Below are positions 3,845 through 43,816 of a stretch of DNA of 64,000 nt, one piece after another (the first letter of the stretch is position 1; each line of letters opens with the position of its first letter). Location of the stretch: assembly GCA_015228875.1 (NCBI GenBank), contig JADGCS010000001.1, forward strand, positions 55,886 to 119,885, written 5' to 3'. The stretch is from Deltaproteobacteria bacterium. Lineage in GTDB: Bacteria; UBA10199; JADGCS01. The notes under the pieces were generated by a model. That model was not told where the DNA came from. It did no database searches and saw nothing but the letters and a program-made list of their open reading frames with translations. The position numbers were made by a program, and so were the translations under genes.

Positions 3845-5112
3845 TTATCACCTGACTGTATTGCGGCAACGGTCACAACACCAGCAATGTTGGCAGGGTA
3901 GTAGTTGTAGGTATCAGAGTGATCGTTCCCTGCAGCGGCCACGACCACAGCATCCAGACTGCGCGCAAACGCAATCGCTTCACGCTCAACAAGTGATCCT
4001 TCATACGAGCTAACACGTCCCAGACTTAAATTGATCACATCAGCCCCCATAGTCGCCGCGTAGGTGATTGCCGCAGCAATATCCGAGGAGCGGCCTTTAC
4101 CAATTGATGATAGAGCTCGCACCGGCATGATCTCGCTCCCATGCGCAACACCAACCACACCGATCCCATTATCGCCCACAGCCGCAATGTTCCCTGCAAC
4201 GTGTGTGCCGTGATAATGTTGATCCATCGGGTTGTTATCCGGGCCTTCATCGTTGTAGGTTGTAAAATTGTAACCGTTAACATCATCAATGTAACCGTTT
4301 GCATCATCGTCGATGCCGTTATCGGGGATCTCGCCGGGATTTTGCCAGATATTCTCGCTTAAATCGGGGTGGTTGTAATCAACACCGCTGTCCACAACGG
4401 CAACAACGACGCCAGCCCCGGTGATGCCCTGTGCCCAAGCCTCAGGTGCGTTTACCCTGTCGATTCCCCAGAGTTCCGGCAGGGAGGGGTCATTGGGGAG
4501 GGGGACTGCGGGATCCACCTCATCGAGTGTAATCACCTCGTCAATTGTTACCGACTCCACATCTGGGTCGTTTTTAAGTTCGTTGATGAGATCTGTCACT
4601 GCGGGGTCTGTTTTGTCTTTGCTGATTTTTGCATCAAGCTTCATGACGTAGAAATCAGAGAGACGGGGAGTCTTGTCTGTGGGAGACCCCTTATTTTTAA
4701 GGGTTGGACGCTGTTGCTTGACCTTATTAAACACATCTTGATGCAACAGGCCTTCGGTTTTCCCCGATGTTTTCATTTTTTTTACAAGTCCGGTAAACAC
4801 GGGCCTTGTCTCGCTGATCTTTTTATGCTGATTAAAAAAGGTATCCAGTTTTGAACCTCCTGATTTTTTGATATCACCTCTCTTAAACCGCATTTTGTCT
4901 GCTGATAATCTGTCCTTTAACAGGCCGCCCAACCCAGGGGCACCGGACTTCGCGGGCTTAAATTTGACGATCAGGCGCACAGGTTCTTTTTCTGCATCCG
5001 CCTGTTGATCCAAAAGTGGATCTAAGCCCTTAAACTGGCCCTGCGTGAGGCAGGGGACAAGAAACAGACAGCCAATAAAAACGATCAACGCGATGGATGT
5101 GTTTTTAAACAT
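3751..5112 (-). CDS. Secreted S8 subtilase, N-terminal fragment: signal peptide, propeptide, and the catalytic Asp/His/Asn part
   Basis: Signal peptide MFKNTSIALIVFIGCLFLV. Motifs VAVVDSGVD, HGTHVAGNIAA and AAGNDHSD. The frame ends in out-of-frame residues after ...SGDNPR. Confidence 0.8.
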   Translation of the reverse strand: MFKNTSIALIVFIGCLFLVPCLTQGQFKGLDPLLDQQADAEKEPVRLIVKFKPAKSGAPGLGGLLKDRLSADKMRFKRGDIKKSGGSKLDTFFNQHKKISETRPVFTGLVKKMKTSGKTEGLLHQDVFNKVKQQRPTLKNKGSPTDKTPRLSDFYVMKLDAKISKDKTDPAVTDLINELKNDPDVESVTIDEVITLDEVDPAVPLPNDPSLPELWGIDRVNAPEAWAQGITGAGVVVAVVDSGVDYNHPDLSENIWQNPGEIPDNGIDDDANGYIDDVNGYNFTTYNDEGPDNNPMDQHYHGTHVAGNIAAVGDNGIGVVGVAHGSEIMPVRALSSIGKGRSSDIAAAITYAATMGADVINLSLGRVSSYEGSLVEREAIAFARSLDAVVVAAAGNDHSDTYNYYPANIAGVVTVAAIQSGDNPRISQILGSTLMWQPPVLMSYQPSQVVPMR

Positions 5113-5426
5113 ACAGGAGACCTCATTCGGTTAAGTGTTTAGCTATAGATGAAAGCAATTTTTGTGCCACTGCTTTGTTTTTTTGCTGGAATAACAATAG
5201 GTTACATGTTTGTCGCCCCAAAGACCTGTTATCAAATTGATAAATTATCATATTAGGGGGCAAAATATTGACACCAGAATTGCTGATACAGCTACAAAAT
5301 TAAAGGCTGATGCGACAGTCCAATCCACAGGTACCCTTAAAAAAAAGCAGAAAAACGCCTTTTTTCATACCAAAAAAAACAAAATAATGCCTTTATTCAT
5401 ATTAAAAAAAGCACTATAATAGAGCC

Positions 5427-6740
5427 ATGCGAAGAACAATCTATCAGGACCTGCTTGGTTGGAAGCGTGCAAAGGCGCGAAAGCCGTTGATTCTCAAGGG
5501 TGCCAGACAGGTCGGCAAGACCTACTCTTTAAAAGAATTTGGAGCAGTCGAGTTTGCACACTGCCATCATTTTGATTTTATTAAAGACAAAAAATTAAAA
5601 ACAGTATTTGAAGGGGACACTGATCCTCTGGCCATCATAAAAAAACTCGAGATTCAATACGATAAAAAAATTGATCCCGCCCGCGATCTTATTATCTTTG
5701 ATGAAATACAGGACTGTCCCAACGCCTTAACCTCTCTAAAATATTTTTGCGATGATTTAAAAAATTCTTTTGTTATTGGTTCGGGTTCTTTTTTGGGTGT
5801 CAGTCTCTCTGCAGAGCCCTATCCTGTGGGCAAGATTAAAACCCTCAAAATGTATCCGATGACCTTTTTTGAGTTCTTAAGAGGGCTTGGTAGAGAACCC
5901 TTGCTCAATGCCATTTTAGAAGGCACTCAGGGCAACAGGATTGATTTATCGGTTCACGAAAAGGCGTTGGAGTATCTTAAATTTTATTTTATCACGGGGG
6001 GCTTGCCCGAGATCGTCAACGAGTTTAAAAACAGCCATTCTGATTTAGCGGGTTCGTTTATCAAAGTGCGCGAGATGCAGTTCGAGATGCTGGACAACTA
6101 TCAGAACGACATGTCAAAGCATGCCGGAAAAATAAATGCATTAAAAATACAGGCGGTCTTTCAAGATGTGCCCGTTCAACTTGCAAGAGAAAACAAGAAC
6201 ACAACAAAGTTTGTCTTTAAGGATGTTTTAACTTCACGCTCAAACTACGAGCAACTCGAAGACCCCATCATGTGGCTTGAAAAATCAGGTTTGATATTTA
6301 AGGTGCCTGTCTGCAACAGGGCCGCCCAACCGTTAAAGGCCTACACGACACACAATCATTTCAAGTTGTACCTGTTTGATGTCGGGCTGCTTGGGGCCAT
6401 GACGGGGCTTGAGCCAAAGACCATCTTCAATTACGATTTCGGCAGTTACAAAGGGTATTTTGTCGAAAACTATGTGTTGCAAGAGTTGACATCGTCTCTT
6501 GAGGCGCCTGTTTACAGTTGGAAAGAAAACACCAGCGAGGTTGAATTTTTAATTGCGCTATCGGGTGAGATAACGCCTGTTGAGGTCAAGGCAGGGATCA
6601 ACAAAAAGGCAAAGAGCCTCAAGGTCTTTATGGATAAGTATTCGCCAAAAAAAAGTTTTCTGGTGTCGGGCCACACCATCAGTCTTAAAAATAAGGGGGT
6701 GTCTTATTTGCCCTTGTATGCGGTGTCTGCGATCGGGTGA
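5427..6740 (+). CDS. AAA+ ATPase family protein (N-terminal P-loop GARQVGKT, DUF4143-like C-terminus)
   Basis: ILKGARQVGKTYSLKEF Walker A, DExx-like IIFDEIQ. The length and layout are typical of stand-alone AAA/DUF4143 proteins. Confidence 0.6.
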   Translation: MRRTIYQDLLGWKRAKARKPLILKGARQVGKTYSLKEFGAVEFAHCHHFDFIKDKKLKTVFEGDTDPLAIIKKLEIQYDKKIDPARDLIIFDEIQDCPNALTSLKYFCDDLKNSFVIGSGSFLGVSLSAEPYPVGKIKTLKMYPMTFFEFLRGLGREPLLNAILEGTQGNRIDLSVHEKALEYLKFYFITGGLPEIVNEFKNSHSDLAGSFIKVREMQFEMLDNYQNDMSKHAGKINALKIQAVFQDVPVQLARENKNTTKFVFKDVLTSRSNYEQLEDPIMWLEKSGLIFKVPVCNRAAQPLKAYTTHNHFKLYLFDVGLLGAMTGLEPKTIFNYDFGSYKGYFVENYVLQELTSSLEAPVYSWKENTSEVEFLIALSGEITPVEVKAGINKKAKSLKVFMDKYSPKKSFLVSGHTISLKNKGVSYLPLYAVSAIG

Positions 6741-8309: not shown

Positions 8310-9276
8310 TTATTTTTTTACGGCATCGGCATTGAGCGCGTTGATCAACTCACCTTTTGTTAAAAAGGCTGCGATTTGATTTGCCGCATCGATGGCGACG
8401 TTATCCTGCGCCTCGTGCGTGGAGGCGCCGAGGTGCGGGGTAAAGATGACCTTGTCGCTTTTTAAAAGAGGGTGATGAGGGTCGACAGGTTCTTTTTCAA
8501 AGACATCAAGGGCTGCACCCGCCACAATGCCGTTTTCTATGGCCGCGCAGAGGTCTATTTCGTTGATGATCCCGCCGCGTGCACAGTTGATAATAAAGAC
8601 GCCTTTTTTCATTTTTTCGAAGGCCTGTTTGTTGACCATGCCGGCTGTTTTTTCATTTTTTGGCGTATGAATGGTGATGTAATCGGCGGTTTTGTAAAGG
8701 TCGTCGAGCTCTACTTTTTTTGCACCCAGTGCCGTGACAGCGGCCTCTGTTAAAAAGGGATCGTAGACAATGACATTCATTTTAAGACCTGCGGCCCTGT
8801 CGGCCACTATTTTACCTATGTTGCCGGCGCCGATGAGACCAAGAGTTTTATTGAAAATCTCCGACCCCATGAAGGCGTTTTTTTCCCACTTGCCGGCCCT
8901 GATTGAGGCGGTAGCCTGCGGGATCTGGCGGGAGCAGGCAAACATCATCGCGATGGCGTGTTCGGCGGTGGTGACTGTATTGCCAAACGGGGTATTCATC
9001 ACGATGATCCCTTGTTTGGAGGCCGCGGGGATATCGACGTTATCAACACCAATCCCTGCACGAGCAATGACCTTAAGTTTTTTTGCACAGGATAAGATGT
9101 CGGCCTTGAGTTTTGTTGCCGAGCGAATAATAATGGCATCAACATCGGCAATCACCTCCTTGAGTTTGTCGATATCTTTACCAAGACCGGGCTGGTTTAA
9201 GACCTCGATCCCCTTTGTTTCCTGAAGTATTTTGATTCCCTTGGGGGAGCACTTGTCCGAAATGAGTACTTTCATA
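8310..9276 (-). CDS. D-isomer-specific 2-hydroxyacid dehydrogenase (short SerA-like phosphoglycerate dehydrogenase, no ACT domain)
   Basis: MKVLISD start with upstream RBS. NAD-binding motif GLIGAGNIGKIVA. Catalytic region FINCARGGIINE...HLGAST. The tool ORF extends upstream through a spurious region. Confidence 0.8.
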
Positions 9277-9410
9277 ATGTTTGCAAAAATTCCAGACAGC
9301 CCCCTGATACGCACGGTTGCCGTGCAGGAGAGCACCCACCTTCTCTGTGGTGGCATGAGGAGGGGGGTGAGTCTGGAAGAACGCGTTAATGGTTGTTATA
9401 CCCTCGATGT

Positions 9411-9507
9411 ATAGGAATTTCAAAGTCGACAGAGCGCGGGTGCATTCCTCGCAAAATGGAGGAATTCAATCGCGTCAAAGTCAAGTTAGTAACTTGTGAT
9501 CATTTGA
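9411..9507 (+). repeat. Repeat family A copy
   Basis: ataggaatttcaaagtcgacagagcgcgggtgcattcctcgcaaaatggaggaattcaatcgcgtcaaagtcaagttagtaacttgtga. Confidence 0.85.
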
Positions 9508-9744
9508 GCCGCGCCTTTACCAGGTTCAAGTCAATAACCGGGACCGTGCTATCATACGGGTGGACATTGTCAATAGCACCTTGATCAGAAGACCGCTGAT
9601 GATGGGACAGAGGCCCTGAGCGGGTATCCTTCGCTCTCAGGAGACAGGTGAATAACGCGCTGATATTATAAAAAAAGTTGATGTCAGGGGCTCTCATGCC
9701 CTATGGGTTTCCTGGATGGGAGAGACCTTTTCTGGAGGGTGCCT

Positions 9745-10122
9745 ATGTTGACCGCAAATCATGAATACGACATCATCACCTGCCGGGGATTTCAATACGC
9801 ATGCGAGATCGGCATTTTTGAGAATGAGCAGGGCGTTAAACAAAAAATTCTTGTGGATCTTAAGGTCCCCATCAAGAAAGACGTGTCTTACGAACAGGAC
9901 AGGGTGCAGGATATCCAGTTCGCTTACGATCAGGCAAATCAGGTGATCAAGGGTGTTGTTGAGGGAAAAAGGTATAATCTGATCGAATCACTCGCAGAAA
10001 AAATTGCCTGTGAGCTTTTACAAAAATTTGCTATTGAGTTTGTCGAAGTGGAGGTCACAAAATTTCCCATCGATATGCCCAACGCAGACTCCGTTTCATT
10101 CACATGCATCAGGGGCAGGTAA
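9745..10122 (+). CDS. folB: Dihydroneopterin aldolase
   Basis: About 125 aa with the FolB-like pattern IxxCRGFQYACEIGIFENEQGVKQKILVDL...YNLIESLAEKIA. A GGAGGG RBS precedes the ATG at 9745. Confidence 0.75.
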   Translation: MLTANHEYDIITCRGFQYACEIGIFENEQGVKQKILVDLKVPIKKDVSYEQDRVQDIQFAYDQANQVIKGVVEGKRYNLIESLAEKIACELLQKFAIEFVEVEVTKFPIDMPNADSVSFTCIRGR

Positions 10123-10123
10123 T

Positions 10124-10777
10124 ATGAAAATCATATCCAATACCGCCATCAGTATCGATGGAAAAATAGGTTTTAAAATAGATCAGCTTGTTTTTTTGGG
10201 GACACGGCGGGACCGTATCAGGATGAGTGAGATTAGGGGAACGGCGGACGCCATTCTGGTTGGAGGGCAGGGTTTTAGAAACTGGCCAAAACCCCTGCTG
10301 GCCAGAGAAGAAGACGAAAAACACGATCTTAAAAAAAAACCAAAACTGAATGTCGTTTTATCCCACAGCCTGCATCTACCGGTTGACAACGAATATCTTG
10401 CCGAAAAGAGAAAAAGAACTCTGGTCCTGACTGACGCCACAGCAATCCCCCATGGATTTCCCTTTGAGGTCGTGCAGTGCAGGGGGCAGATTTCTGCGGA
10501 ATGGATCGCGGACGAGATTGCCAAGAGGGGTGTAGAGACGCTGCTGATCGAGGGCGGTTCAACCATCCTGCACATGTTTTTACAGTCCGAACTCATCGAT
10601 GAGATGTTTATCACGCTGTGTCCGCTGATTATTGGTGGCCATCAGGCCCCGTCGCTTGTGGGCGGCGAGGGATTTACCGTCAGCCATTTCAAGCGTTTCG
10701 AGATCGTTAAAAACGAAGTCATCGGTCACGAGATCTTTCTGCACTACAAGTTACTAAAAAACAAGTTACTAACTTGA
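10124..10777 (+). CDS. RibD C-terminal-domain / dihydrofolate-reductase-like family reductase
   Basis: ISIDGKIG, DAILVGGQGF and LLIEGGSTILHMFLQSELIDEMFITLCPLIIGG are hallmark motifs of the RibD_C/DHFR fold. The ATG lies 1 nt after the folB stop. The C-terminal approximately 12 aa are read from repeat A. Confidence 0.7.
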   Translation: MKIISNTAISIDGKIGFKIDQLVFLGTRRDRIRMSEIRGTADAILVGGQGFRNWPKPLLAREEDEKHDLKKKPKLNVVLSHSLHLPVDNEYLAEKRKRTLVLTDATAIPHGFPFEVVQCRGQISAEWIADEIAKRGVETLLIEGGSTILHMFLQSELIDEMFITLCPLIIGGHQAPSLVGGEGFTVSHFKRFEIVKNEVIGHEIFLHYKLLKNKLLT

Positions 10778-10875
10778 CTTTGATGCCCCGAAGGAAATGC
10801 CCTTGGGGCACGCGATTGAATTCCTTCATTTTGCGAGGAATGCACCCGCGCTCTGTCGACTTTGAAATTCTTGGA
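10762..10875 (-). repeat. Repeat family A copy (inverted), with a nested 24-nt GC motif
   Basis: Reverse complement of the 9411 copy, with inserted ccccgaaggaaatgcccttgggg. Confidence 0.85.
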
Positions 10876-10895
10876 TATAAATATAGAGGTATCAA

Positions 10896-11519
10896 ATGAA
10901 ATGTGAAGAATCAAACCGCAAGTGTCAGCACACAGTTTTCAAGATCGCAGAAAAAAAAGACAACAGCCCCGTCATCAGGGAGTCTGTGGCAAATATTCTC
11001 TCTGCCCTTGGTGAGGATGTGGGACGGGAGGGGCTGGTTAAAACCCCCGAACGTGTGGCAAAGGCGCTGCAGTTTTTAACCAAGGGCTACTACGAAGACC
11101 CCTGCTCCATTATCAAGAGTGCGCTGTTCGAAGAAGACATAAACGAGATGATCGTGGTCAAAGACATCGAGCTTTATTCGATGTGCGAACACCATCTGCT
11201 GCCTTTTGTTGGCAAGGCGCATGTTGCCTATCTCCCCAGAGGGAGAATTGTAGGCCTTTCAAAGGTTGCGCGTGTGGTCGATATCTTTGCGCGCAGGTTT
11301 CAGGTGCAGGAAAGGCTCACCAAGCAGATTGCCGAGACACTCAACAACTGCCTTGAGCCGCAGGGGGTTGCTGTGGTCATTCAGGCGGCCCATATGTGCA
11401 TGCAGATGAGGGGGGTGCAGAAACAAAATTCGGTCATGGTCACTTCGACGATGCTGGGGGCCTTTCAGGAGCTGGCGACACGCAATGAGTTCATGAATTT
11501 TATCAAGGGGAGTTTATAA
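10896..11519 (+). CDS. folE: GTP cyclohydrolase I
   Basis: [18 protein letters not shown]...[25 protein letters not shown]. Confidence 0.93.
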
Positions 11520-11531
11520 AGCGGGGAGAAT

Positions 11532-11939
11532 ATGTCTCACACACGATTAATCTGCCGCTATCCATTTTGCGCGGCGCACAGACTCTGGCGATCGGACTGG
11601 TCCGAAGAAACCAATAAAAAACATTTTGGCAGATGCACCGGTATCCATGGCCACGATTACAGGATAGAGGTCCACCTCACGGGTGATGTGTCAAGGGAAA
11701 CCGGGATGCTCATTAACGGTTTTGCAGTCGACGAGATTGTCGGCACATTTATCAGTAAACACCTTGATCACAAGTATCTCAATCAGGACATCCCTTTTTT
11801 TTCAGATCATCTGCCCACAGCCGAGATGATTGCCTTCTGGGTTTATAGCAGTCTCAAAGCATCGTTTCCCAGTCATGTGACACTCGAGAAAATAGTGATT
11901 TTCGAAACACCCGATCTGATCGTCGAGTACAGTGTATGA
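11532..11939 (+). CDS. queD: 6-carboxytetrahydropterin / 6-pyruvoyl-tetrahydropterin synthase family (QueD/PTPS)
   Basis: CxxxHGH motif (CTGIHGHDYRIEV), FxAAHRL start, about 135 aa. Confidence 0.8.
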   Translation: MSHTRLICRYPFCAAHRLWRSDWSEETNKKHFGRCTGIHGHDYRIEVHLTGDVSRETGMLINGFAVDEIVGTFISKHLDHKYLNQDIPFFSDHLPTAEMIAFWVYSSLKASFPSHVTLEKIVIFETPDLIVEYSV

Positions 11940-13024
11940 ACATCAGACATGTTATCTTTGACTGGTCGGGGACTTTGTTCAACGATCACAGGCCTGGATA
12001 TCTGGCCACCAGGGATATTTTTGTAAAACTTGCCGGCATTGATATTTCTTTTAAGGATTACAAAAAATATTTTAAACTGCCGGCGGTTTCCATTTACAGG
12101 CGTTACGGCATCAAGACCCCTTTTAAAAAAATCAACGAAATCTATTTTAAAATATATGAAAATTACTACAGAAAGGGATCCCTTTTTGACGGGGTGATTG
12201 ATGTCCTCAAAACACTTAAAAAACAGGGGATACAGGTCAGTGTTTTTTCTACGGTCAGACAGGATCTCATTGAGGATCTTGTCAAAGCATACAATCTTGA
12301 GAGTTATATTACAAACGTCACGGGTTCGGTATGTGACAAACGTAAAGAGATGAAAGGGCTGTTACAAAAAATCAAATGTCAGCCCGCTCAAATCCTGTTT
12401 ATAGGAGACATGGAACACGACATTCAGGCGGCGAAAAAAAACGGACTGATCAGCGGCTGTGTGAATAATGGGTATAGTACAAAAGAGATACTTGTTCGTT
12501 CCCGTCCGCGTTTTATGTGGCAGACACAGAGGGATCTGGTCCCTTTTTTAAAAAAAATATCCCAGAAAAAAAATAAAGCAGTTTGTCCCTTAAAATACCC
12601 TGTGTCAACTGTCGGGGCGCTGATCTTTAATACAAAAGGAGAGGCCCTGTTTGTGCTGACACACAAATGGGGATTCACTTACGGGATTCCCGGCGGCAAA
12701 ATAAAAAAAGGTGAAAGTGCAGATGCTGCCCTAAAGAGGGAGCTTCTCGAAGAGACAGGTCTCGATATCATTATCAAGGAACTCATTGTTGTGCAGGACT
12801 GCATTGCTTCGAGGGAATTCTACATCAAAAAGACACATTTTATTTTATTTAATTATCTTGCCTGTGCAAAGAGTGGTGTCGTACAACTTAACAATGAGGC
12901 CGTATCGTTTTTGTGGCTTGATCCTCGTGATGCACTCAACTTAACACTTAATGAACCCACGCGGTATCTGTTAAAAGTTTATCTTCAAAAGGCAAAAAAA
13001 AAGACCCTCGCACATTGCCGGTAG
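11936..13024 (+). CDS. HAD-superfamily phosphatase fused to a NUDIX hydrolase
   Basis: N-terminus VIFDWSGTLFND (HAD motif I DxxGT) and FIGDMEHDIQAAKKNG (motif IV). C-terminus carries the Nudix box GGKIKKGESADAALKRELLEETGLD. The start overlaps the queD stop (ATGA). Confidence 0.75.
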   Translation: MNIRHVIFDWSGTLFNDHRPGYLATRDIFVKLAGIDISFKDYKKYFKLPAVSIYRRYGIKTPFKKINEIYFKIYENYYRKGSLFDGVIDVLKTLKKQGIQVSVFSTVRQDLIEDLVKAYNLESYITNVTGSVCDKRKEMKGLLQKIKCQPAQILFIGDMEHDIQAAKKNGLISGCVNNGYSTKEILVRSRPRFMWQTQRDLVPFLKKISQKKNKAVCPLKYPVSTVGALIFNTKGEALFVLTHKWGFTYGIPGGKIKKGESADAALKRELLEETGLDIIIKELIVVQDCIASREFYIKKTHFILFNYLACAKSGVVQLNNEAVSFLWLDPRDALNLTLNEPTRYLLKVYLQKAKKKTLAHCR

Positions 13025-13244
13025 GCAACGGGAAGGTCTTAAAAGGGGGTCAGTCAGCTCTTTCGAGCTTCTAAGTCTTTATCGGGTGGGCCTGTGTGAT
13101 GTTGCGCCTTTTTTAACAAAAGACCGGTTGCACAACAGACGCGAGAAACACAGAGTGATAACAACAAGATGAGCGTGCCGCGCCGTGTCAGACACCCCCC
13201 CCGTTGATGCGCTATTTTAAATTGGGGCGCGCTTTGGGTTTTAT

Positions 13245-14501
13245 TTGATCATGCGAATATTGGAATCTCTCAATGTCCCCAAAAATGACAACGATTTTCC
13301 GGTCGAAAAGATTCTCAATCACAAATTGATTCTTGAGTTTGAAAAACTTGCGCGGTTTAATTCGTCAAAGCAACTGGTTCAATCCGCAGAATTTCAACAG
13401 CTCAAGCAGCCGTTATCCGAGTTGATTTACGGATACGAGTACGGCTGTTATGTCGACGAATCCGACACGGCGAGAAAAAAACCATTTATCAGAGCTGTGT
13501 TGTGGCACCTTGAGAATGGGATTAACTACAACGGTATTCTCGAGACATTAAGAAACAGGGCGCTTGTGCGCAAGGCTGATATTTATTTTTTTCCCTCGAC
13601 CGACATTGGTATGGCCCGTTCGGGCAACAGAAATGTCATTCGCGATCTCGCCATCGAGCTTGGGTATAATTATTATTTTGCAACAACCTTTGTAAATCTG
13701 GATTCAAGCGATACAAATCATTTCGGACAAAAAACAAATGTGCTGGGGCTGGAGGGAAACGCCATCATGACAAGGTTTCCCGTCTCAAACTTAAGGTACG
13801 TCTCCCTTAATCATTATCACGATATTTTTAATGGTCCCAAAAAGATTCTGGGTTGCGAAAAGGTGCTGCTTGCAGACCTTGTCATCGATGACAACCGGCA
13901 TTTGACGGTTGTTTGTATCAATCTCCCCGATTATTCATCTCCGCGACACCGCTACAAATACATGCGGCAGGTGATGGGCAGCTTGAAAGACCATCAAATC
14001 AGAAAAACACCCATTTTGATTGGTGGGGATTTAAAAACCTCCACGTACAACTGTAAGACAGAATTGCATTTTTTCTTGAGTGTTCTCAATAAGGTCTATC
14101 GTGATTTTGATTTTATTGCAGGTGAGCACCATGTTTTTCCCGAGCGTTTCTTTGAAAAACATTTCTTTGATTACCTTAAAAGCAGGGGGTTTTATTTTGA
14201 TATTTTAAATGAGATGGGAACAGGGTGTTTTAACGTCAAACCAGAAGAAATTTTTGCTGCTTACACAAAAAAAAGAGATACAAAATTATACAATCTGGTC
14301 AGATCTTTGTTAAAAAACAGAAATGAAAAACTTTCGTATAAACACGACTGGTTTATAGGCAACCGCTTTATCAAGCCCAGCGAAAGTCATCAGGCGGAAA
14401 GACCAAAGGTTATTTCGCATTTGTTTTTTGATGGTCGTCCCGTATCGAGTCATGATCCTGTTCTACTGGACTTTGAGATTGCGGATGTTCGGAAAGATTA
14501 A
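13245..14501 (+). CDS. Endonuclease/exonuclease/phosphatase (EEP)-family protein
   Basis: GNAIMTRFPV and ILIGGDLKTSTYN resemble EEP catalytic motifs. The gene is AT-rich. Confidence 0.45.
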   Translation: MIMRILESLNVPKNDNDFPVEKILNHKLILEFEKLARFNSSKQLVQSAEFQQLKQPLSELIYGYEYGCYVDESDTARKKPFIRAVLWHLENGINYNGILETLRNRALVRKADIYFFPSTDIGMARSGNRNVIRDLAIELGYNYYFATTFVNLDSSDTNHFGQKTNVLGLEGNAIMTRFPVSNLRYVSLNHYHDIFNGPKKILGCEKVLLADLVIDDNRHLTVVCINLPDYSSPRHRYKYMRQVMGSLKDHQIRKTPILIGGDLKTSTYNCKTELHFFLSVLNKVYRDFDFIAGEHHVFPERFFEKHFFDYLKSRGFYFDILNEMGTGCFNVKPEEIFAAYTKKRDTKLYNLVRSLLKNRNEKLSYKHDWFIGNRFIKPSESHQAERPKVISHLFFDGRPVSSHDPVLLDFEIADVRKD

Positions 14502-14994
14502 ATGAATCAAAAAATCTCTTGTTGTCTTTTTTGGACGAAAAACCATGCTTTGAAATCACACCCAGTGTGTAGAGGGTATTGGCGTTAAAAAAGATACGGT
14601 AACAGATGTATTGCTGATCCTGCGTGACAAAACTGATTTCTACCCCCGCGTTTTTTTTCACGGTGATTTTTTTTTCTGATTTGACCGTTCCCATTTTGGT
14701 GTTCACAAGGATTGATTTTGTATTGTCAATAAAAAGCTGCTTGTCTTCTTGCGACAGTTCCGTGCTGTGGATTGAATAGATAATCTTGAATTGTGTGTCA
14801 CCGCTTTCGGACAGGACTGTGTTGACGGTGTATTCTGCCCTGACGGTGAAAGAAAACTGTGGTTCGGCTGGCAAAAGAATGGAGAACAAGTCATCGGGTG
14901 TCTGGTACTGTATCCAGTCAGGTTGATCATCAGCCTCTGCGCTGTTTGCGCATAAAGAAAACAACACGGCAATCAGCAGTATTTTTTTTATCAT
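14410..14994 (-). CDS. Secreted hypothetical protein (signal peptide)
   Basis: MIKKILLIAVLFSLCANSAEADD signal peptide. Its 3' end overlaps the convergent EEP gene by about 90 bp. Confidence 0.45.
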   Translation of the reverse strand: MIKKILLIAVLFSLCANSAEADDQPDWIQYQTPDDLFSILLPAEPQFSFTVRAEYTVNTVLSESGDTQFKIIYSIHSTELSQEDKQLFIDNTKSILVNTKMGTVKSEKKITVKKNAGVEISFVTQDQQYICYRIFFNANTLYTLGVISKHGFSSKKDNKRFFDSFNLSEHPQSQSPVEQDHDSIRDDHQKTNAK

Positions 14995-33609: not shown

Positions 33610-33693
33610 TAGGAATTTCAAAGTCGACTGAGCGCGGGTGCATTCCTCGCAAAATTAAGGAATTCAATCGCGTCAAAGTCAAGTTAGTAACTT
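33610..33693 (+). repeat. Repeat family A copy
   Basis: aggaatttcaaagtcgactgagcgcgggtgcattcctcgcaaaattaaggaattcaatcgcgtcaaagtcaagttagtaacttg. Confidence 0.85.
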
Positions 33694-43050: not shown

Positions 43051-43135
43051 CAAGTTACTAACTTGACTTTGACGCGGTTGAGTTCCCTCGTTATGCGAGG
43101 AATGCACCCGCGCTCTGTCGACTTTGAGATTCCTG
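43051..43135 (-). repeat. Repeat family A copy (inverted)
   Basis: caagttactaacttgactttgacgcggttgagttccctcgttatgcgaggaatgcacccgcgctctgtcgactttgagattcc. Confidence 0.85.
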
Positions 43136-43699: not shown

Positions 43700-43816
43700 A
43701 GGAATTTCAAAGTCGACAGAGCGCGGGTGCATTCCTCGCAAAATAAAATGGAGAAATTCAATCGCGTCCCCCAAGGGGATTTCCTTCGGGGCATCACAGT
43801 CAAGTTGGTAACTTGA
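43700..43816 (+). repeat. Repeat family A copy, with a nested 24-nt GC motif
   Basis: aggaatttcaaagtcgacagagcgcgggtgcattcctcgc...cccccaaggggatttccttcggggc...gtcaagttggtaacttg. Confidence 0.85.

Follow-up and report, generated by a model that had tools for sequence, protein, structure and literature searches.

Gene content and layout of the cluster

This report deals with a cluster of five genes in a stretch of 64,000 nucleotides (nt) from a Deltaproteobacteria bacterium (GTDB lineage UBA10199, JADGCS01; assembly GCA_015228875.1, contig JADGCS010000001.1, positions 55,886 to 119,885 of the forward strand). The whole of this stretch is called the window in the following. The cluster occupies positions 9745-13024 of the + strand and ends with the gene of a fusion protein in which a HAD domain is joined to a Nudix domain, a candidate bifunctional phosphohydrolase of pterin metabolism. 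Its five members were assigned with Pfam and NCBIfam profiles:

9745-10122, + strand, folB-like gene, 125 residues (PF02152, E = 3e-20)
10124-10777, + strand, RibD_C / DHFR-fold NADPH reductase paralogue, 217 residues (PF01872, E = 8.6e-26)
10896-11519, + strand, folE, GTP cyclohydrolase I (TIGR00063, 261.5 bits with a cut-off of 181.6; PF01227, E = 5.7e-76)
11532-11939, + strand, PTPS family gene of the QueD (PTPS-I) type (PF01242, E = 2.1e-30)
11936-13024, + strand, HAD–NUDIX fusion gene, 362 residues (HAD_2, E = 2e-23; NUDIX, E = 7.6e-17)

An earlier note on this DNA had described five co-directional genes with a 1-nt spacing and an ATGA overlap, and all of this was borne out by the profiles and by direct reading of the junctions. 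The TAA stop codon of folB (10120-10122) is followed by a single T and then by the ATG of the RibD_C gene at 10124, and the ATGA at 11936-11939 unites the stop of queD with the start of the fusion gene (4-nt overlap). Between RibD_C and folE lies a gap of 118 nt that contains one copy of a dispersed repeat. We infer that the five genes constitute one operon. Its denomination as a folate/pterin operon holds as far as the presence of FolE and FolB is concerned, but it is not purely a folate operon because its PTPS is of the QueD type and the clusters of relatives include queE. Neither a riboswitch nor any other known RNA was detected in 9200-13400 beyond a chance match to DicF (E = 0.29), and scans for promoters and terminators gave counts no higher than in shuffled sequence. 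With E. coli sequences as queries no match to folK, folP, queC, folA or nudB was found in the window, a result that can serve as a lead only.

The HAD–NUDIX fusion protein

Profile searches for both halves of the protein, proposed in the earlier note as a check, matched HAD_2 in the N-terminal and NUDIX in the C-terminal half, and the typical motifs of both folds can be located in the gene:

11936-12550, + strand, HAD domain, subfamily IA with helical cap (residues ~1-205; HAD_2 over residues 6-171)
11957-11974, + strand, HAD motif I, FDWSGT (nucleophile D9, then W10, S11, G and T13)
within 12245-12253, + strand, HAD motif II, S105
within 12335-12346, + strand, HAD motif III, K135
12404-12421, + strand, HAD motif IV, GDMEHD (D158/D162)
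12596-13000, + strand, Nudix domain (residues ~221-355; NUDIX PF00293 over residues 224-346)
12695-12763, + strand, Nudix box GKIKKGESADAALKRELLEETGL (residues 254-276), intact and in agreement with GX5EX7REUXEEXGU

In the Nudix box E260, R268, E269, E272 and E273 do not vary, either in a set of 27 relatives or in one of 39. The HAD half shows no variation at D9, S105, K135 and D158; D162 is constant in alignment A1 and conserved to at least 90% in alignment A3. The AlphaFold2 model of the fusion, calculated with 27 relatives, reached a mean local confidence (pLDDT) of 94 and a pTM of 0.90, with somewhat lower values for the linker alone. According to Foldseek the HAD half resembles phosphoglycolate-phosphatase-like HADs (2hsz, 3d6j and 2hdo, TM 0.76-0.85), and the Nudix half, with its alpha/beta/alpha fold, resembles Ndx1 (1vc8, TM 0.84), MutT (3grn, TM 0.80) and NudI (~0.8). 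No PDB entry with both domains together was found by sequence or by fold. An exact look-up of the protein of the window yielded no entry. A phosphonatase-like reading of the DW[S/A]GT motif was considered and ruled out: phosphonatase-type HADs require a Schiff-base lysine, and there is no invariant lysine in the cap region.

A search of 5.8 billion proteins with the fusion as query returned 3313 matches. Among the best 120 of them 115 are HAD+NUDIX proteins of 343-392 residues and the other five are either shorter or without a HAD call by Pfam; identity goes down to 35% in this protein search. A scan of one genome per species revealed at least 574 loci, mostly in Verrucomicrobiota, besides Planctomycetota and a few other groups, and an exhaustive profile search yielded 510 family representatives at E <= 1e-30. 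The fusion is a member of a large unnamed family of ~350-390 residues that occurs in more than 570 species-representative genomes. Database names of its members are generic or wrong (“HAD hydrolase-like protein”, “NUDIX domain-containing protein” or “phosphoglycolate phosphatase”), and the protein of the window is named only “HAD hydrolase-like protein” in the NCBI metagenome-assembled genome. In 222 family sequences in which motif I could be recognised it reads DWSGT 205 times, DWAGT 8 times, DFSGT 6 times, DFAGT twice and DWCGT once. Since DxD is absent from all 222, DWSGT has to be considered as a family trait and not as a defect of the gene in the window. One metagenome protein of 483 residues (P0125) shows an unexpected combination with an N-terminal Smr domain (PF01713, E = 6.6e-17) placed before the HAD–NUDIX unit.

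Association with FolB

The neighbourhood of the fusion was surveyed in 80 loci of species-representative genomes with a hidden Markov model built from FolB sequences, whereby first-round matches within 5 kb on either side were counted. FolB was found in 65 of these 80 loci. In 62 of them it starts directly after the stop codon of the fusion gene, at a distance of up to ~340 nt, and the remaining three comprise an in-frame fusion (L058) and two Planctomycetia (L001 and L002) in which FolB follows after an intervening SDR gene. No FolB match occurs elsewhere within ±5 kb in the 65 loci. Among the 15 loci without a match there are seven with less than 500 nt of sequence downstream of the fusion. 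The survey of co-occurrence with folE and folB suggested in the earlier note has thus a clear outcome for folB, while folE accompanies the fusion in the clade of the window.

The order of the genes differs between lineages. In Verrucomicrobiota (Verrucomicrobiia) it is fusion–FolB, mostly without a reductase, in Planctomycetia it is fusion–SDR–FolB, and many metagenome contigs show fusion–FolB–SDR. In the clade of the window the order is FolB–(RibD_C)–(QueE)–FolE–QueD–fusion. Outside this clade FolB stays near the fusion and neither queD nor queE is found near it. An SDR is often present as the third component of the module; 11 of 14 carry the PTR1/FolM signature TGX3RXG, and the SDR of L086 reaches 206.7 bits on a pteridine reductase model, which is its best-scoring model type. 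Nudix genes of the family type without a HAD part also stand beside SDR and/or FolB (metagenome loci L116-L119, L123-L128 and L130-L131), and three of the neighbouring SDRs carry TGX3GXG instead. Since such Nudix-only loci and TGX3GXG reductases occur, the module has to be regarded as modular and its reductase as not uniform.

Besides adjacency there is direct fusion in all combinations. Proteins with the architecture HAD–NUDIX–FolB form ~20 clusters at 90% identity, with P0121, P0122, P0123, P0126, P0127, P0135 and P0148 as Pfam-confirmed representatives at 50% identity, and single clusters hold members from ENA, NCBI, Logan and JGI assemblies. In the verrucomicrobial genome L058 the same architecture is encoded by one open reading frame (ORF) of 498 residues. 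NUDIX–FolB proteins make up a further ~20 clusters (195-332 residues). HAD–FolB proteins are represented by P0176; of 15 loci inspected 11 had the two domains fused, in each case with DWSGT, and some HAD–FolB fusions have neither Nudix nor QueD nearby. The FolB domain of P0121 scores 80.6 bits on the FolB equivalog model and passes its cut-off of 72.15, in comparison with 49.3 bits on the FolX model. The partner of the fusion therein looks like a real FolB.

Both domains are very strongly associated with FolB in evolution. A neighbourhood that persists through rearrangements between phyla, combined with recurrent fusion, is the pattern expected for enzymes of consecutive steps. The earlier note would have given up its proposal if homologues were never linked to folate genes; with FolB in 65 of 80 loci, in other phyla and in fused proteins, the opposite was found. 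Its alternative, i.e. a co-localisation of housekeeping domains by chance, can be set aside in view of FolB adjacency across several gene orders and of the fused proteins.

Proposed role in the pterin pathway

The literature continues to ascribe the last dephosphorylation before FolB to a “non-specific phosphatase” (PMC1971073, PMC4161248), in agreement with the statement of the earlier note that this phosphatase is unassigned in most bacteria. Homologues of FolQ are present in few bacteria only (PMC1971073). A full-text literature search revealed no paper that links a HAD enzyme to dihydroneopterin.

We consider it probable that the product of 11936-13024 is a bifunctional phosphohydrolase that belongs to the pterin branch and acts with FolE and FolB in the following way. 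FolE (10896-11519) would produce 7,8-dihydroneopterin triphosphate. The Nudix domain would remove pyrophosphate and leave the monophosphate, as NudB and FolQ do, and the HAD domain would take off the last phosphate to give dihydroneopterin, which FolB (9745-10122) would cleave or epimerise. The pathway would branch after FolE: QueD (11532-11939) would lead to 7-deazaguanine, the queuosine precursor, and the fusion together with FolB to folate or another pterin. In this scheme the substrates, the sequence of reactions and the part played by the RibD_C protein are inferred. A more specific assignment goes further and sees in the DWSGT-type HAD a dedicated dihydroneopterin-monophosphate phosphatase that works without the canonical aspartate and would be the first specific enzyme for a step that textbooks give to “non-specific phosphatases”; in combination with Nudix, and often with FolB, it would be part of a two- or three-step enzyme leading to dihydroneopterin or 6-hydroxymethyl-dihydropterin. 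Here our judgement is evenly divided. Nudix and HAD folds as such are already known, and what appears to be new is a bifunctional candidate with FolB as partner and a non-canonical HAD active site. Built on comparative genomics, this central interpretation seems well supported.

Several observations weigh against it. In motif I of the HAD half the +2 position is occupied by serine and not by aspartate, so that DxDx(T/V) is not matched. In canonical HAD phosphatases this second aspartate functions as general acid/base (PMC8069645). Because it is missing the HAD half should not be classed as a standard HAD phosphatase. Its hydrolysis of monoesters may be slow or may proceed via another residue, and H161, Y54 and W10, all of them invariant or nearly so, may stand in for the aspartate. 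The Nudix half reaches only 24.6 bits on the NudB equivalog NF006961 (cut-off 103), and the best 60 PDB sequence matches of the fusion protein do not include NudB. Judged by these comparisons it is not an orthologue of NudB and is at least as close to generic MutT, NudI and Ap6A hydrolases. The suggestion of the earlier note that Nudix and HAD fit both dephosphorylation steps is supported by the linkage to FolB and the conserved motifs, but weakened by the unusual motif I and the distance from NudB. As regards gene context, the tightest coupling of the fusion in the clade of the window is with queD and not with folB, and in some lineages FolB is found beside Nudix alone or HAD alone. Matches to folK or folP near the fusion were obtained in 1 of 156 loci (a lead only). 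Finally, as PTR1/FolM-type reductases are frequent in the module, its product may not be folate.

The last point leads to a reading with the same chemistry and another destination. The module would then supply, not or not only folate, but unconjugated tetrahydropterin (tetrahydroneopterin or tetrahydromonapterin) in a FolX/FolM-like manner, with the FolB-family protein acting mainly as epimerase and the SDR or RibD_C protein reducing a dihydropterin. The frequent SDR with its TGX3RXG motif (taken from PMC1971073) and the 206.7 bits of the L086 enzyme speak for it, as do the translational coupling of the reductase to FolB in the window and in L083 and the fact that folK and folP are not clustered with the module (a lead only). 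To our knowledge the phosphatases of the FolX/FolM route are likewise unassigned. In addition, folM-like genes clustered with pterin genes have been predicted to make tetrahydropterins (PMC1971073). On the other hand, the FolB model is preferred over the FolX model both by the protein of the window (65.4 vs 39.4 bits) and by P0121 (80.6 vs 49.3 bits), most loci of Verrucomicrobiota contain fusion–FolB without a reductase, and FolM is the sole dihydrofolate reductase listed for Parachlamydia, so that the SDR fits a folate role as well. On balance we regard this destination as unlikely; it would alter the fate of the product but not the proposed role of the fusion. The output of the module could be folate, with the SDR or RibD_C protein as dihydrofolate reductase, and/or an unconjugated tetrahydropterin, and the job proposed for the fusion is the same whichever end product is formed.

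Less probable still is a scheme in which the monophosphate is not the target of the HAD domain and another enzyme takes off the last phosphate. The substrate of HAD would then be a compound with a good leaving group or a by-product such as pyrophosphate or triphosphate from Nudix or QueD (QueD releases triphosphate), or a phosphorylated two-carbon fragment if FolB accepts the monophosphate. Such a role would suit the family-wide replacement of DxDxT by DWSGT, the nearest named HADs, namely phosphoglycolate phosphatases together with PpaX and BT2127, both pyrophosphatases, and the translational coupling of queD to the fusion in the clade of the window. However, HAD–FolB fusions without Nudix or nearby QueD tie the HAD domain to FolB itself, and the scores against the named HAD families remain far below their cut-offs. 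We know of no characterised bacterial FolB that uses phosphorylated dihydroneopterin. Very improbable, in our estimation, is the view that both domains are housekeeping enzymes of nucleotide sanitation present by chance, or that they serve the 7-deazaguanine branch instead of FolB. In its favour are the resemblance of the Nudix half to MutT, NudI and Ap6A hydrolases, the generic database names, the overlap with queD and the additional queE in relatives. Chance, however, cannot account for FolB adjacency in 65 of 80 loci with differing gene orders, nor for FolB fusions in all combinations. Against this view are also the loci outside the clade of the window, where FolB stays and queD and queE are absent near the fusion, and the fact that queC was not found in the window (a lead only).

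Folate is made by a textbook pathway that is also targeted by drugs, yet no gene is assigned to the step that takes off the last phosphate before FolB, and in most bacteria the pyrophosphatase likewise has no assignment. The FolB-linked family, which occurs in hundreds of verrucomicrobial and planctomycetal species as well as in some sulfate-reducer-like lineages, makes this gap testable with a defined protein. If the bifunctional phosphohydrolase proposed here is correct, it would allow the reannotation of thousands of genes that now go under the names “phosphoglycolate phosphatase”, “HAD hydrolase-like” or “NUDIX domain-containing”. The family would then include a HAD phosphatase that acts in the absence of the +2 aspartate. 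It would also clarify how the product of FolE is split between folate, other pterins and queuosine in these phyla.

Comparison with known systems

NudB from E. coli, FolQ (YlgG) from Lactococcus and NUDT1 from Arabidopsis are, like the C-terminal half of the fusion, small Nudix proteins with an intact box. They remove pyrophosphate, and for the fusion, which is placed in the pterin branch by its genomic context, the same reaction is proposed. Moreover, FolQ was also found via clustering with fol genes (PMC1971073). The differences are as follows: the Nudix half is not orthologous to NudB (24.6 vs 103 bits), NUDT1 is just one among many equally distant PDB matches, and in contrast with these three enzymes the Nudix domain is here always C-terminal to HAD or fused to FolB.

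A precedent for the Nudix part is found in Parachlamydia UWE25, which belongs to the same superphylum. According to the supplementary SEED table of a study from 2007 (PMC1971073) folQ and FolB are one gene (peg 1157) in this organism with FolM next to it (peg 1156), while folA is absent and folK and folP are located elsewhere. This arrangement follows the same module logic as NUDIX–FolB proteins and fusion–SDR–FolB loci. The case consists of the table entry alone, and no HAD domain or function for one is mentioned there. The remark in the earlier note that such a fusion was not recognised as described has consequently to be restricted. The protein is present in databases and the Nudix–FolB combination has been on record since 2007, but for the link with HAD no paper was found.

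With Gph, PpaX and BT2127 of HAD subfamily IA the N-terminal half shares the Rossmann-like core with helical cap, motifs II-IV and the nucleophilic aspartate. Those enzymes have DxDGT and belong to carbon metabolism, whereas the fusion HAD has DWSGT and a FolB context, and its best score on phosphoglycolate phosphatase (Gph) equivalogs is 62 bits vs 225. The FolX/FolM route to tetrahydromonapterin likewise consists of a FolB-family protein, a TGX3RXG reductase and FolE, with unassigned dephosphorylations between them. In contrast with that route the partners described here score as FolB and not as FolX, and the reductase of the window has the RibD_C fold and is not an SDR.

FolE and the QueD-type PTPS

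The active-site motif of the PTPS protein, CTGIHGH (11634-11654, residues 35-41), corresponds to CxxxHGH. This signature is typical of PTPS-I/QueD, in distinction to CxxxxxHGH of PTPS-II (biopterin) and ExxHGH of PTPS-III, which bypasses FolB (PMC5041015). The PTPS-III motif is not present in the window, where threonine occupies the respective position (alanine in relatives). On the QueD equivalog the protein reaches 63.7 bits and remains below the cut-off of 89.25. The PTPS of relatives shows the same CxxxHGH motif and has a QueE gene alongside, namely the radical-SAM gene between RibD_C/FolB and FolE (254 bits on the QueE model). The cluster in the clade of the window thus appears to encode both consumers of the FolE product, i.e. 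the QueD branch and the fusion/FolB branch.

At the head of the FolB–QueE–FolE–QueD–fusion cluster of L081 and L083 stands a gene for a DUF2203 protein (5114-5554 and 4882-5316, respectively; PF09969, E = 2e-32), for which a connection with the metabolism of pterins or deazaguanines is conceivable. With the proteins of relatives as queries neither queE nor DUF2203 was matched in the window.

The FolB-like protein and its RibD_C neighbour

A GGAGGG Shine-Dalgarno sequence is located 6 nt ahead of the folB ATG at 9745. The encoded protein scores above the cut-offs of PF02152 (73.3 vs 31.8 bits) and folB_dom (59 vs 45), just below that of the TIGR00525 equivalog (65.4 vs 72.15 bits) and far from that of FolX (39.4 vs 152). 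Residues E21, Y53, E73 and K98 of E. coli FolB (2O90), which we take to be catalytic, are all identical in the aligned sequence. FolX has the same four residues, so that their conservation does not distinguish between aldolase and epimerase.

The RibD_C protein reaches the cut-off of none of the RibD and archaeal reductase equivalogs (the best is TIGR01508, 103.5 vs 186.45 bits; TIGR00227, 92.9 vs 150.15 bits). A FolB–RibD_C pair is also found in the relative locus L083, where both genes overlap by 4 nt. For the FolB-coupled RibD_C protein a function in the reduction of dihydrofolate or a dihydropterin is probable.

In Planctomycetia and in L081 the FolB beside the fusion is longer, with 240-250 residues (L086, 7806-8558; L081, 5569-6291; L001, 9040-10548). 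Its C-terminal extension of ~130 residues gives weak matches below the cut-offs to cupin and mannose-6-phosphate-isomerase-like families (E = 0.0002-0.008). We know of no function for a FolB–cupin architecture.

Composition, flanking genes and repeats

The fusion gene has a GC content of 40.8%, and its GC content at third codon positions (0.441) is the lowest of 49 ORFs in the window (mean 0.555, standard deviation 0.049), which confirms the impression of the earlier note that it is AT-rich. It is part of a low-GC stretch from 11.9 to 15.0 kb. The lateral acquisition that the note considered possible on these grounds was rejected as unsupported. A dozen related loci have folE, queD and the fusion gene in the same order, and L083 has the 4-nt overlap as well. 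In four relatives the fusion gene is not poor in GC when compared with its neighbours. Moreover, the window and L081 have the purA–serA flank ahead of the cluster in common. Since the closest relative is only 55% identical, a replacement in place by a foreign copy is conceivable, with nothing positively in its favour.

The ORF downstream of the cluster (13245-14501, + strand, 418 residues) had been labelled EEP in the earlier note. This label rests on a resemblance of motifs, as scattered EEP-like motifs are present, e.g. SSHDPVLLDF at the C-terminus. It is not sustained by Pfam, NCBIfam or PDB sequence searches, which gave no match even at E <= 1. A convergent ORF (14410-14994, - strand, 194 residues), whose product begins with a signal-peptide-like sequence and matches no family, overlaps its 3' end by 92 nt. 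The two ORFs are as GC-poor as the fusion gene. As the downstream genes differ in every relative examined, 13245-14501 lies outside the conserved cluster.

Upstream, a serA-like gene (8310-9356, - strand, 348 residues) covers positions 1-315 of the 525-position phosphoglycerate dehydrogenase model, and its syntenic counterpart in L081 has 530 residues with intervening and ACT domains. The aminotransferase and the Na/H exchanger found between serA and the cluster in L081 are absent from the window.

A dispersed REP/MITE-like repeat of ~85 nt occurs in five copies in the window, where none is expected by chance:

9415-9497, + strand, repeat copy upstream of folB, where relatives have DUF2203
10761-10870, - strand, inverted copy with a 27-nt hairpin insert that overlaps the RibD_C stop, where relatives have queE
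33613-33656, further copy
43089-43132, - strand, further copy
43702-43745, further copy

Two of the copies contain an extra GC hairpin of 27 nt. The copies at 9415-9497 and 10761-10870 form an inverted pair (61 + 26 nt) that brackets folB–RibD_C, and the second of them provides the last codons of RibD_C. These repeats may mark repeat-associated loss or rearrangement of genes.

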